From IMG/VR virus record IMGVR_UViG_3300014638_000001: a stretch of DNA of 22,211 nt. One strand, 5' to 3'. Under the pieces are notes generated by a model. It saw only the letters and a list, made by a program, of their open reading frames with translations. It searched no databases and was not told the origin of the DNA. Every line of letters begins with the position of its first letter. Position 1 is the first letter of the stretch. This DNA comes from a virus. This document shows, piece by piece, positions 11,832 through 22,211 of the stretch. The position numbers and the translations under genes were made by a program.

Positions 11832-11907
11832 TGGAACCCGCCGCCGGAATCGAACCGGCCTGATCCACTACGGCTACCGGTTTAGGAAACCGGACCGGTA
11901 GGCGGGC
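11832..11907 (-). tRNA. non-canonical tRNA-Arg(CCT): no D-arm, D-loop-like segment 3' of the anticodon arm
   Basis: GCCCGCC-TACCGGT-CCGGT-TTCCTAA-ACCGG-TAGCCGTAGTGGATCAG-GCCGG-TTCGATT-CCGGC-GGCGGGT-TCCA. Confidence 0.8.
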
Positions 11908-11910
11908 TCA

Positions 11911-11986
11911 TGGTGCTCCCGGCGAGACTCGAACTCGCATGTCCATTTACAGTTACCGGTTTAGAAGACCGGGCTGGTACGGGAGC
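11911..11986 (-). tRNA. non-canonical tRNA-Arg(TCT): no D-arm, D-loop-like segment 3' of the anticodon arm
   Basis: GCTCCCG-TACCAGC-CCGGT-CTTCTAA-ACCGG-TAACTGTAAATGGACAT-GCGAG-TTCGAGT-CTCGC-CGGGAGC-ACCA. Confidence 0.8.
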
Positions 11987-12753: not shown

Positions 12754-12769
12754 ACTCCTATATAGGAGT
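12754..12769. repeat. 16-bp palindrome ACTCCTATATAGGAGT (copy 3 of 4)
   Basis: Perfect palindrome. Confidence 0.85.
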
Positions 12770-13105
12770 GTCGGTCAAGGAAGAAAGTTTGAAGCCGCTA
12801 CGCTCATTGGGTACCATGATGTTGCTGGCCGCAATGATCTGTGGTGAGTGCCCACAGTAAGTGCAATGGCACCCGTGATATACCAAGCAGCCAGGACGAT
12901 TCTCTGGACATGGTATGTCTTCGAGCGTTGGGTTTCTACAGACTGGGCAGACGTTCCGCGGGATGTCCAGGATCTTAATGCTCTCCGCGCGATAGGCGAT
13001 TTCGGTACCGAATTGTCGCATTTGTAGGTAAGCTGCGTCGTCGTCGAAGGCCATGATGGCGACCCGCATACCGTCTAGCACGTAGAAGAAAAGGCGCTCT
13101 CTCAT
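12758..13105 (-). CDS. Cys/His-rich hypothetical protein (CPVC...CP...GC.V.H.CHCTYC) within the tRNA array
   Basis: ORF from ATG 13105; the upstream part of the track ORF overlaps a structured RNA. Confidence 0.55.
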   Translation of the reverse strand: MRERLFFYVLDGMRVAIMAFDDDAAYLQMRQFGTEIAYRAESIKILDIPRNVCPVCRNPTLEDIPCPENRPGCLVYHGCHCTYCGHSPQIIAASNIMVPNERSGFKLSSLTDTPI

Positions 13106-13113
13106 GAGTTGAA

Positions 13114-13273
13114 TCGCCGGCGGCCGAGATTCCCGATTCTCCACTCGGCATCTCCTGGTGGCTGGATTTCCACGTCCAGCTTCTAGCCTCATCCGGCATC
13201 AAGCTCCAGGCGCACTATTTTGTTTATCGTCTCTATGGAAGGAGCAATCCTTCAGTTTGTGCTACGCCGGCGA
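13114..13273 (-). ncRNA. expanded tRNA-shaped RNA (about 160 nt, no CCA)
   Basis: Acceptor TCGCCGGCG/CGCCGGCGA, D stem GCAC/GTGC, anticodon stem CCTGG/CCAGG, T stem GCCGAG/CTCGGC; all three loops enlarged. Confidence 0.65.
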
Positions 13274-13277
13274 ACTT

Positions 13278-13351
13278 TGGTGGAAGCGAAGGGAATCGAA
13301 CCCTCATCGGCTGGGTGCAGACCAGCAGTCCTCCCGTTGAACGACGCCCCC
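13278..13351 (-). tRNA. tRNA-Ala(TGC), C33
   Basis: G3:U70; A73; loop TCTGCAC; CCA. Confidence 0.88.
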
Positions 13352-13434: not shown

Positions 13435-13508
13435 TGGCTCCAAGGGAGGGAGTCGAACCCCCATAGCGCGGTTAACAGCCGCGTGCTCTACCGTTGAGCT
13501 ACCAAGGA
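13435..13508 (-). tRNA. tRNA-Asn(GTT), two U-U mismatches in the acceptor stem
   Basis: CGCGG-CTGTTAA-CCGCG; G73; CCA. Confidence 0.88.
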
Positions 13509-13522
13509 ACAAACAAAACTTT

Positions 13523-13597
13523 TGGTACCCCGCTCCGGATTTGAACCGGAATTCACAGCTTCGTAGACTGTAGTCCTGTCCGTTGAACGAACGGGGC
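13523..13597 (-). tRNA. tRNA-Arg(ACG)
   Basis: ACAGT-CTACGAA-GCTGT; A20; CCA. Confidence 0.92.
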
Positions 13598-13702: not shown

Positions 13703-13930
13703 TCAAACCTTTCCCTTCAACGCGATCGCCGCGTTCGCCGTCATCACGGTTTCCCGGAGTAGCCGCATCGCTGCAAATTGATCAGCGCATAACGGCGTTT
13801 CCTCCGCCAGCACCTTCGCAAACTCCTTCGCAGCGGCGCGCAGGCGCTCGTATTTCCCTCGCTGTTCTTCGTCTGGCGCGTGGTACGTGAAGACGTCTTC
13901 GATCCATTCTGCTGTCATCGGTTGTGCCAT
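13703..13930 (-). CDS. Acb2/Tad1-like helical hairpin protein (putative cyclic-nucleotide sponge)
   Basis: FTYHAP..EQ..KYE.LR.AAKEFA......P..AD...AMR.LRE.VM.ANAAIA pattern; TGgTACGAT -10 is 6 nt before ATG 13930. Confidence 0.7.
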   Translation of the reverse strand: MAQPMTAEWIEDVFTYHAPDEEQRGKYERLRAAAKEFAKVLAEETPLCADQFAAMRLLRETVMTANAAIALKGKV

Positions 13931-14046
13931 ACCAGGATCGTACCACAACTTCTGCGATTTTGCTTGCGTTTTCCGTTACACCCTGATAATCTGTTGACTT
14001 AAATTCGGAGGCGAAATGGTTATCGACTCCCATGAGGCGGGACGCG

Positions 14047-20206: not shown

Positions 20207-20210
20207 AGTT

Positions 20211-20352
20211 TGGGCTGATACTGTTTGAAGTGCCATACACGAAGGGCCACCAAGGAAGCGGGCGCGGCGGCCGCTGACCCTTCCACCGTCGCGAGGCGTA
20301 AGCCTTCGGGGAGATAAACCCTAGCGGAAGCTCCAAGCGATTTAACAGCCCA
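20211..20352 (+). ncRNA. Y-RNA-like RNA 1
   Basis: Terminal stem TGGGCTG/CAGCCCA; internal loop ATACT/GATTTAA; second stem GTTTG/CAAGC. Confidence 0.6.
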
Positions 20353-20358
20353 TTGATT

Positions 20359-20488
20359 TTGGCGGATACTGTTCGGGCTCACACGTAGCTCATTTGGTAG
20401 AGCGCTTCGCCTTCGCTTGAGACGAAGATGTAACTGGTTCAACTCCAGTCGTCCCCGCAAGGGGTTGCTCGAGCGATTTAACCGCCAA
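20359..20488 (+). ncRNA. Y-RNA-like RNA 2 with a tRNA-like domain
   Basis: TTGGCGG/CCGCCAA; ATACT/GATTTAA loop; internal D arm GCTC-ATTTGGTA-GAGC and T arm ACTGG-TTCAACT-CCAGT. Confidence 0.7.
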
Positions 20489-20494
20489 GTAAGT

Positions 20495-20735
20495 TTGGCT
20501 CGTATACTGCGGCTGGTCACACGTTTTCAGCTTAGTAAGCTGAAAATCCAGGTTCGAATCCTGGTCCCTCCACCGGGGAGGTTGAGCGGGGTCTCTCTGC
20601 GGCCCACAGAGAGATTTGTGGAACCGTTCAACCCTCGCGGTGGGGGGATCGTCCAACGGTAGGACATCAACGTCTTTCGGGTGCCGGTGAAAGCTGGTGC
20701 TTGATTGAAAACCAGAAGCGATTTACGCGAGCCAA
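20495..20735 (+). ncRNA. YrlA-like Y RNA 3 (permuted tRNA domain)
   Basis: TTGGCTCGT/GCGAGCCAA; ATACT/GATTTAC loop; T arm (20548-20564), then a closed acceptor-like stem (20565-20648), then a D arm GTCC-AACGGTA-GGAC. Confidence 0.75.
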
Positions 20736-20768
20736 TTAAAAATGTCAACTTTATGAAACGAGACAGCC

Positions 20769-22211
20769 ATGATCGAACAAGCGCTCAGCAAGACAGCCAT
20801 CATTTCGCAGCTCGCGCAATCGCCGCATGGCAAACTCGAAGCCTACCTCCCTGTTGGTGAAGTTGCCGCCCGGCAGGAGCCGGAATTTCTCTCGCATCTC
20901 ATCGCCTATAACCGGATCCACGGCCAGGTGCGCGACGCCAAGGTTGCCTTGCCGGTTGTGTTTTTGGCGAAGGGTGCGCTGAATGTCGAGTACATCGACA
21001 ACGCATTGGCGCATCTGGCATTGCTCGATGTTCGAAACTTCGAGCAGGCCGTACGCTTCGCGAAGACGCAGCATGCCCGAATGCACCGGGTGAACGATGT
21101 AGTGCGGCGCTACGTCCGTGTGCGCGAAGCCAACACGTTTCGCTGGGAAAAGGCAGCGGTGCAGCATCGCGAGACACTGACCAATTTGTATGCTCTCGCG
21201 CGTGTACGCCCGGCGCCATGGGCGAACGAGATTCTGTTCAAGCAGAAGTATCCGCGCGGCTCGGTTTTTGAGGCGATCGACAACCTGAAGAATATGACAC
21301 CACTCGAGGCGGCCGGCACGATCGCCGCTCGCAAGATTCCGTTTTTGATTGCCGTCGGCGCCTTGGGCGCCAAGTCGAAGGATCCGGACCTGGTGTTGGC
21401 GATGATCAACCGGATGTCGCCATCGGAGCTAGTCAACAACACAACCATGCTGCAGCGCATGGGAGTGAAGACGGTCCCGGCACTTCGTGCAGCTTATGAC
21501 GAAGCTCTGGCGAAGGCCGCTGGCAGCAAGAAGAACACGCTGAAGGTGACGAAGATCATCGAGAATGCCGAAGAGGAGCTCGATGAAGGCACTGTCGAGA
21601 AACTGAAGGTGCTCCAGGAGAAGCAGATCAAGACCCTTGGCGGTATCGATGGCAATTGGCTCGTGTTGGCCGATAAGTCTGGCTCGATGACGATGGCGAT
21701 CGAAGCATCGCGGCACATCGCGGCAACGCTTGCCCGGATGGTGAAGGGTAAAGTGTGGCTGGTGTTCTTCGATACGATGCCGCGGGGCACGGAAGTGACC
21801 GGCATGACCTATGAGCAGATTCGCGACAGAACCAAGGGCGTGACCGCGAATGGTGGCACGTCGATCGGTTGCGGTTTGCTCGGGATGCTGGAAGCTAATG
21901 TCGAGGTTGACGGCATCGCCATCGTGTCGGATGGCGGTGAAAACCAGCCGCCCTTGTTCCCGGCGGTCTACAAGTTGTACTGTGAGAAATTCGGCAAGGA
22001 ACCGCCGGTGTATTTGTACCGGCTGAACGGCGAAATCGATTACCTAAGCCATGAGATGCAGCAAGTTGGACTCGATTTGCAGAAGTTCGATTTGGCCGGC
22101 AACACGGTGGATTATTACGCGCTGCCGAATCTGGTCCAGACCATGTCGTGTCAACGCTACGGTTTGATACAGAAGATCTTGGACACGCCGCTCTTGCGGC
22201 TGGACGACATT
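20769..22211 (+). CDS. divergent Ro60/TROVE-like protein with a C-terminal vWA domain (3'-truncated by the window)
   Basis: Translated by hand: open for 481 codons from MIEQALSKTAIISQLAQSPHGKL; helical N-terminal region, then vWA motifs LADKSGSM, GGTSIG, IVSDGGEN; adjacent to Y-like RNAs. Confidence 0.75.
   Translation, partial: MIEQALSKTAIISQLAQSPHGKLEAYLPVGEVAARQEPEFLSHLIAYNRIHGQVRDAKVALPVVFLAKGALNVEYIDNALAHLALLDVRNFEQAVRFAKTQHARMHRVNDVVRRYVRVREANTFRWEKAAVQHRETLTNLYALARVRPAPWANEILFKQKYPRGSVFEAIDNLKNMTPLEAAGTIAARKIPFLIAVGALGAKSKDPDLVLAMINRMSPSELVNNTTMLQRMGVKTVPALRAAYDEALAKAAGSKKNTLKVTKIIENAEEELDEGTVEKLKVLQEKQIKTLGGIDGNWLVLADKSGSMTMAIEASRHIAATLARMVKGKVWLVFFDTMPRGTEVTGMTYEQIRDRTKGVTANGGTSIGCGLLGMLEANVEVDGIAIVSDGGENQPPLFPAVYKLYCEKFGKEPPVYLYRLNGEIDYLSHEMQQVGLDLQKFDLAGNTVDYYALPNLVQTMSCQRYGLIQKILDTPLLRLDDI

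Follow-up and report, generated by a model that had tools for sequence, protein, structure and literature searches.

The question raised by this locus is whether a 160-nt stretch, which lies among the tRNA genes of a phage and has the outline of a tRNA with enlarged loops, is a decayed tRNA gene or an RNA kept by selection in another role. The DNA that was analysed (the window) is 22,211 nt long and is contained in a 32-kb IMG/VR virus record with an estimated completeness of 32%; the same phage species is found as contigs of ~101 kb in many peat and soil samples. The element occupies positions 13114–13273 on the minus strand and is housed by a minus-strand tRNA operon with 12 tRNAs (ARAGORN, Rfam). 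The operon is split by an HNH endonuclease gene and opens, ahead of tRNA-His, with the gene of an Acb2/Tad1 hairpin-domain protein (13703–13948, minus strand; Pfam E = 9e-12). The upstream neighbour of the element is tRNA-Ala(UGC) (13278–13351, minus strand; ARAGORN and Rfam), and a reading of the sequence confirms that the element begins 4 nt past the CCA of this tRNA, at 13278, as an earlier note made from the sequence had stated. A Cys-rich ORF of 115 aa (12758–13105, minus strand) lies 8 nt downstream and outside the RNA, its start (MRERLFFY) being fixed by the homologue P0005. Public gene calls stretch this ORF spuriously into the RNA and so misread the element as the N-terminus of a 'protein' of 128–144 aa. 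No convincing promoter or terminator is found inside the element on the minus strand, and there are no paralogues of it elsewhere in its genome. Eight sampled copies of the same phage species carry an identical element, and the short contig L108 has a single substitution, at an unpaired loop position; since the element is almost invariant within this nearly clonal species (5 SNPs in 5.4 kb across 7 copies), such copies are uninformative.

The minimum free energy (MFE) fold of the element is a four-way junction (−58.5 kcal/mol, z = −2.66) with stems of 9 (closing), 4 (D), 5 ('anticodon') and 6 bp ('T') and spacers of 2, 1, 4 and 0 nt. The earlier note had described a cloverleaf skeleton with tRNA-like linkers, and the sequence matches that description exactly, the MFE fold giving the same junction. 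All 24 skeleton pairs are Watson–Crick in the window copy, and the four skeleton helices have pair probabilities of 0.5–1.0. Concerning the individual parts, all on the minus strand, the closing ('acceptor-like') stem is formed by its 9-nt 5' strand UCGCCGGCG (13265–13273) and its 3' strand CGCCGGCGA (13114–13122), after which there is no unpaired CCA. The spacer UA (13263–13264) stands at tRNA positions 8–9, and its first base is U in 27 of 33 members of the family described below. The D arm (13212–13262) has the stem GCAC/GUGC (13259–13262 with 13212–13215) and a 43-nt loop, which contains an optional hairpin, GAAGGA-UUGC-UCCUUC (13238–13253; pair probability ~0.48), an A-rich tract and the conserved D-loop motif (13216–13234; AGAGACGAUAAACAAAAUA in the window, AGAnACGAUnnAnAAAUUA in the family). 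A single G (13211; tRNA position 26, G in 23/33 and A in 8/33 members) separates the D stem from the 'anticodon' arm (13154–13210), which consists of the 5-bp stem CCUGG/CCAGG (13206–13210 with 13154–13158) and a 47-nt insert folding into two hairpins, with no 7-nt anticodon loop. The 'variable region' is the 4-nt AGAU (13150–13153), the last base of which varies with the second base of the D loop, and the 'T' arm (13123–13149) has the 6-bp stem GCCGAG/CUCGGC and a 15-nt loop, UGGAGAAUCGGGAAU (13129–13143). Within the D loop and the 'anticodon' domain, the inner hairpins are less well determined than the skeleton, with alternative pairings at a probability of 0.2–0.5. The palindrome CGCCGGCG, which forms the closing stem, was also considered as a dispersed DNA motif and rejected (8 copies in the genome against 6.25 expected).

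Because all skeleton pairs of the window copy are Watson–Crick, the opposite strand folds as well; the reverse complement of 13114–13273 in fact folds even better (−63.4 kcal/mol, z = −4.15), and the strand was assigned from the context and from G–U pairs in other members. We used a purpose-written scan for all-Watson–Crick cloverleaf skeletons, with loop limits of up to 60, 60 and 20 nt. In the 32-kb record it gave four matches, which are three true tRNAs and the element, and in 40 dinucleotide-preserving shuffles of the record it gave none. Elsewhere, the scan marked three tRNA-sized cloverleaves not called by ARAGORN in the tRNA array of an unrelated phage (L012:1225–1295, 1535–1608 and 4014–4083, plus strand). 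Two 'expanded cloverleaf' matches in the high-GC contig L004 lie within ORFs and were judged to be chance.

As a tRNA the element is recognisable only in part. The cloverleaf with spacers of 2/1/4–5/0 nt is present. A 7-nt anticodon loop with U33 and an anticodon is absent, its place being taken by 47 nt here and by 24–106 nt in the family. The corner signature G18G19 with T54-psi55-C56 is also lacking, the T loop being 15 nt long and the D loop having no free GG, and instead of a 7-bp acceptor and a 5-bp T stem with discriminator and CCA there are stems of 9 and 6 bp. An encoded CCA was found within 6 nt downstream in none of 35 members. ARAGORN is negative on the element in standard, relaxed, intron, organellar and tmRNA modes. 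An Rfam 15 scan, one of the checks proposed in the earlier note, gave no match on the element at E up to 10, whether to the tRNA model RF00005 or to any known ribozyme or riboswitch. The element does not qualify as a tmRNA, with one 12-bit sub-threshold match to the permuted tmRNA model, nor as an RNA of the RF02553 type, the sole match to that model (E up to 10) lying over the tRNA genes at 13457–13574. In 12 member loci nothing reached the Rfam gathering score. Unusual tRNA-like stretches were noted in other places too. One of ~55 nt with a T arm, in another phage (L008:385–440, minus strand), directly follows a tRNA-Ala which shares the 3' end of the window's tRNA-Ala; it is seemingly one arm short, and ARAGORN makes no call.

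A homologue in the same position is found in phage L110, a 103-kb JGI contig which was reached via P0137, a 62%-identical homologue of the operon-head gene. The order of its tRNAs equals that of the window (His, Arg, Asn, Gln, Ala, then Leu, Cys, Ser and so on), and the Acb2/Tad1-like gene precedes tRNA-His there as well. The segment L110:7169–7331 matches a model built from the window element alone (R1) with 149.6 bits (E = 5e-38) and likewise starts 4 nt after tRNA-Ala, repeating the arrangement of the window. The 5' third of the element is nearly unchanged between the two phages and the remaining differences preserve the fold, with 4 pairs altered on both sides. The 'anticodon' stem CCUGG/CCAGG becomes CCCAG/CUGGG through two double compensatory changes; the T stem GCCGAG/CUCGGC lacks one base pair in L110, through deletion on both sides, and has C–G in place of an A–U pair. 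An inner stem is longer in L110 through matching insertions on both strands, and another hairpin differs in sequence and stays a hairpin. Downstream of the L110 element there are only 129 nt to the next tRNA. The Cys-rich ORF is absent, the shared sequence resuming at the last codons of the window's ORF, which is thus an insertion or a deletion relative to L110. Relatives of this ORF are found in the same species, in one 80% relative and as remote homologues, which share only the Cys/His-rich C-terminal part and lie in ordinary phage gene rows. In L110 ARAGORN also calls tRNA-Arg(UCU) and tRNA-Arg(CCU) with an 11-nt overlap (L110:7732–7886, plus strand); the corresponding window positions 11832–11986 are uncalled.

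The T loop was chosen as the key for a wider search because it is identical in the window phage and L110. The pattern, 17 bases long (the 15-nt loop and one flanking base on each side), was searched in IMG/VR and in the species genomes and gave 70 viral loci. A covariance model built from the window and L110 (R2) scores 204 bits on the window element, which shows the marks of the family, namely four covarying helices, the D-loop motif AGAnACGAU..A.AAAUUA and the 15-nt T loop. Full-length R2 matches, from 96 to 20 bits and with a GC content of 0.29 to 0.60, were obtained at ~40 of the 70 viral loci, and further matches in nine MAG contigs (Planctomycetales, Omnitrophota, Eremiobacterota, Vulcanimicrobiota, Sterolibacterium, Erysipelotrichia and an unclassified bacterial bin). 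In total there are ~45 further members from very different phages and a few MAG contigs, with a GC content of 29–61%, and several of them sit on contigs of 100–550 kb. Many Xanthomonas loci were rejected as members, since they match in the loop only.

Other routes to the family gave little. The element and three other members had no blastn match among GenBank phages, the conserved parts being too short for BLAST, and the exact 27-mer of the T arm had no match in IMG/VR because the stem covaries. A 15-mer across the variable region and the T stem gave 88 chance matches, none of them confirmed by the model. With the 3' end of tRNA-Ala as an anchor only unrelated phages were found, and a terminase fragment had no match in IMG/VR; relatives of the terminase protein exist, the best of which either come without a DNA record or stop short of the array. 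Overall, the searches from the element, the downstream ORF, the tRNA-Ala end and the terminase yielded no homologue of the element beyond the same near-clonal species. One phage with an 80% identical terminase, L109, holds a weak full-length model match of 16–17 bits (L109:4735–4901, minus strand), in a gap of 195 nt lying immediately upstream of the terminase region. The closing stem is similar and an ACGAU motif is present, but the T loop differs; the match may be a diverged member of the family. Our literature searches found no description of this RNA family, and a string search with the loop sequence returned only an unrelated primer. The family is apparently new to catalogues, as it is missing from Rfam 15, from ARAGORN calls and from the literature searched.

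Conservation of the pairing was assessed in an alignment (A7) of 37 rows, 35 of them distinct. Standard pairs are formed in 94.9% of its cells, compared with 55.4% in shuffled controls and 38–43% with slid partners, and both partners vary in 40 of 41 pairs. Because the alignment was made by fitting to the model, the pair counts are somewhat inflated, yet they exceed the controls by a wide margin. A covariation score of 0.621 was obtained, against 0.145, and none of 500 shuffles reached 0.621. Based on each helix separately, standard pairs make up 94.9% (closing), 92.4% (D), 96.0% ('anticodon') and 99.5% (T) of cells, and 9/9, 4/4, 5/5 and 5/6 pairs covary, respectively. RNAalifold on the same alignment returns just the four skeleton helices, with 24 pairs, 23 of which have compensatory changes. 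The alignment thus shows four helices, in the order and with the spacing of a tRNA, which are maintained by compensatory evolution. The check by homologues and covariation which the earlier note had proposed was run, and the refuting outcome, an absence of homologues with conserved pairing, did not occur; the selection on structure and the non-decoding tRNA shape which that note had argued for are supported by homologues with compensatory changes.

The members are 119–195 nt long, with a median of 146 nt. A closing stem of ~9 bp is followed by a spacer of U and then a purine, and by a D stem of 4 bp, which is often GUGU/GCAC. The D loop begins with A in 28/33 and ends with A in 27/33 members, and its last part is the motif, also given as AGAUACGAU..A.AAAUUA, in which conservation among the 35 distinct members is 94% or more at 13 columns; this motif was absent from the search pattern. 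After the D stem come one G or A, the 5-bp stem with its variable insert of 24–106 nt, and then 3–4 nt. The T stem has 5–6 bp with an invariant loop-closing G–C, and its 3' strand abuts the closing stem. The 15-nt T loop is identical in all members, an invariance which is partly ascertainment because this loop was the search pattern. The closing and T stems add up to 14–15 bp, whereas enzymes that measure tRNAs expect 12 bp. The 15-nt T loop and the lack of a CCA had been described in the earlier note, and both are read directly in the sequence. Its other remarks on the loops stand in part. The D-loop hairpin is present here and in L110; it is an optional insertion, however, and many members have a D loop of 22 nt only, without it. 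The two-hairpin insert on the anticodon side is seen, with less certain inner pairings, and is the variable part of the family. Its statement that all loops are expanded needs refining, since nothing in the family is more conserved than the T loop and part of the D loop. Across the members, then, the alignment shows the loops of the tRNA corner to be replaced by a near-invariant 15-nt T loop and a D-loop motif of ~20 nt, and the anticodon loop to be exchanged for a variable domain, with no encoded CCA.

The bases of the tRNA tertiary core are kept. U8 is found in 27/33, A14 in 28/33, A21 in 27/33 and a purine at position 26 in 31/33 members, and the loop-closing G–C of the T stem (G53–C61) is present in 35/35. 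The second D-loop base and the last base of the variable region are associated in a manner resembling the tRNA 15:48 pair (A–U in 10, G–C in 4/4 and A–C in 3), with a Fisher value of ~0.015 which is not corrected for relatedness. Also, the CGAU of the D-loop motif could pair with the AUCG of the T loop, both of them invariant, and could thereby rebuild the contact at the corner; we offer this as a conjecture from the letters of the two loops.

Concerning the neighbourhood of the members, 18 of 37 lie within 500 nt of a tRNA, on the same strand save for one undetermined ARAGORN call. For twelve of the 37 a tRNA is no more than 30 nt away, upstream or downstream of the member, a distance of 0–8 nt being frequent. 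For 13 of the 37 there is no tRNA in the DNA examined, which means that processing linked to tRNAs is not the whole story. Within 3 kb of the members no recurrent protein family is found except for HNH endonucleases, at 5 loci, so that no partner is indicated by a shared neighbour protein.

Two readings of the locus are contradicted by these data. A dead tRNA gene, decayed or riddled with insertions, or else a chance fold without function, would agree with the absence of the tRNA sequence signatures; the near-zero variation within the species (one loop substitution in nine copies) could be cited for it too and is uninformative by itself. It would leave unexplained why 40 of 41 pairs covary among 35 distinct members from very different phages, why the motifs are conserved and why the skeleton did not occur once in 40 shuffles, and we consider it hardly credible. 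It is about as improbable that the element is a cis-acting leader of the Cys-rich ORF, serving as a protective 5' structure or a translational switch. The position would suit such a role, since the element ends 8 nt before the ATG and the ORF has neither a Shine–Dalgarno sequence nor a promoter of its own. L110, however, keeps the element without the ORF, with the next tRNA 129 nt away, and the element is therefore not the leader of this ORF. The relatives of the ORF lie among ordinary genes, the closest (P0005) having an upstream gap of 113 nt, too short for the element, and other members of the RNA family have unrelated neighbours.

Our best guess from the sequence comparisons is a processed, stable tRNA mimic with a rebuilt corner that would bind a conserved partner, and we place such a trans-acting mimic ahead of a decoy, and a decoy ahead of a ribozyme. 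The earlier note had offered a decoy or a scaffold as possible roles, and both are guesses. Phage tRNA arrays counter tRNA-cleaving defences, and a tRNA body stripped of its translation parts might act as a decoy or sponge, titrating a tRNA-directed host defence nuclease or another tRNA-binding enzyme. The kept tRNA core fits a decoy, as does the anti-defence (Acb2/Tad1-like) gene at the head of the tRNA operon in both the window phage and L110. We nevertheless judge it unlikely, because the element has neither the anticodon loop nor the CCA end at which the known tRNA-directed toxins act, and because two new loops that are near-invariant among phages of very different hosts would be superfluous in a simple decoy. 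A new self-cleaving ribozyme class would account for such loops as a catalytic core, on a multi-helix junction, which would cut at one end of the element and free neighbouring tRNAs or mRNAs. HDV-like theta ribozymes act next to phage tRNAs, and the frequent placement at 0–8 nt from a tRNA, on either side, and the lack of a partner protein nearby point the same way. Against a ribozyme are the absence of any Rfam 15 ribozyme match on the element (E up to 10) or in the 12 member loci (gathering score), the third of the members that have no nearby tRNA, and the two ends of the element, which would be the place for a cleavage site and have no conserved nucleotide. The kept tRNA core nucleotides are also better explained by mimicry of shape, and we hold a ribozyme to be a little more doubtful still than a decoy.

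That phage tRNA operons encode small stable RNAs is long established, RNAs C and D of phage T4 being the classic case and the nearest precedent by kind. These RNAs (species 1 and 2; rnaC and rnaD) are stable, 139 and 119 nt long, and lie inside the phage tRNA operon at 1–6 nt from a tRNA or from each other, in an array which also has a homing endonuclease gene. The element shares their position, as a gene abutting tRNAs in a phage tRNA operon, and rnaC, too, has tRNA-like parts. It keeps a standard T arm (GGGUUCGAAUCCC), however, whereas the family has the 15-nt loop and its own D-loop motif. R2, run with filters off on L013:1909–2172, did not match rnaC or rnaD; there is no homology in sequence or structure, and the best R2 matches in T4 are true tRNAs at ~10 bits. 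The roles of the two T4 RNAs are still unknown (PMC3014915).

The family resembles tRNA itself (RF00005) in the order of its four helices, in the spacers of 2, 1, 4 and 0 nt, and in having a 4-bp D stem and a 5-bp anticodon stem. It differs in having no 7-nt anticodon loop, G18G19, T-psi-C, CCA or discriminator, with a closing stem of ~9 bp and a T stem of 5–6 bp. The YrlA-type Y RNAs (RF02553) resemble it as non-decoding RNAs with a tRNA-like module which are found in phages, but the element is without their long Ro-binding stem bearing an internal loop of the AUACUG/CGAUUUA type. Y-RNA-like genes are also present in the window phage, 7 kb from the element, and these keep standard D and T loops, unlike the element. 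At 20207–20735 (plus strand) there are three tandem RNAs with terminal stems broken by AUACUG/CGAUUUA-like loops, one of which has a tRNA-model match at 20383–20452. They are followed by an open frame of at least 481 codons (20769–22211, plus strand) with a weak match to phrog_850, 'RNA-binding protein'; the region 20207–22211 is consistent with a Y-RNA/Ro-like module. A further parallel is offered by the tRNA punctuation model and by the t-elements of plant mitochondria, non-decoding tRNA shapes beside genes, which are cut by RNase P and RNase Z (PMC1920247). The t-elements are lineage-specific relics with ordinary tRNA loops, whereas the family has conserved loops of its own and no tie to a downstream gene.

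The comparative evidence shows that selection maintains the element as a structured, non-decoding RNA built on a tRNA core, and that it belongs to a family widespread in phages. Beyond this, we think it probable that the locus is a gene for a stable RNA of this kind, processed and acting in trans via its rebuilt corner. The RNA would be transcribed with the tRNA operon, from a promoter region ahead of the Acb2-like gene, and would fold into an L-shape. The enzymes that trim its tRNA neighbours could release it, by RNase P-type cutting at the 5' end and RNase E/Z-type cutting at the 3' end. It would then act in trans via the corner, where the two conserved loops probably touch, possibly through the CGAU/AUCG pairing, and would form a binding surface for one conserved partner. 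This partner may be a factor, from host or phage, whose normal task is to read the tRNA corner or the T arm, or it may be a small ligand. That both loops are so strongly conserved in phages whose hosts are unrelated speaks for a conserved target or for a self-contained active site. A bolder version, to which we give only tentative credence, is that the family is a new class of functional RNA in very different phages, which would be a ribozyme of a new kind or else supply the RNA to a ribonucleoprotein not yet described. With its rebuilt tRNA corner, formed by the 15-nt T loop and the D-loop motif, it might engage a universally conserved host machine, for instance the ribosome, RNase P or a tRNA-modifying enzyme, and so redirect it during infection.

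For phage biology, the finding means that tRNA operons hold small RNAs which here follow clear rules, namely a tRNA core, two near-invariant loops and an arm that is free to vary. It also means that a recurrent class of phage RNA genes escapes both tRNA detectors and Rfam, and that its members at present pass in annotations for intergenic DNA or spurious ORFs. The family offers a ready covariance model and dozens of natural variants for biochemistry.
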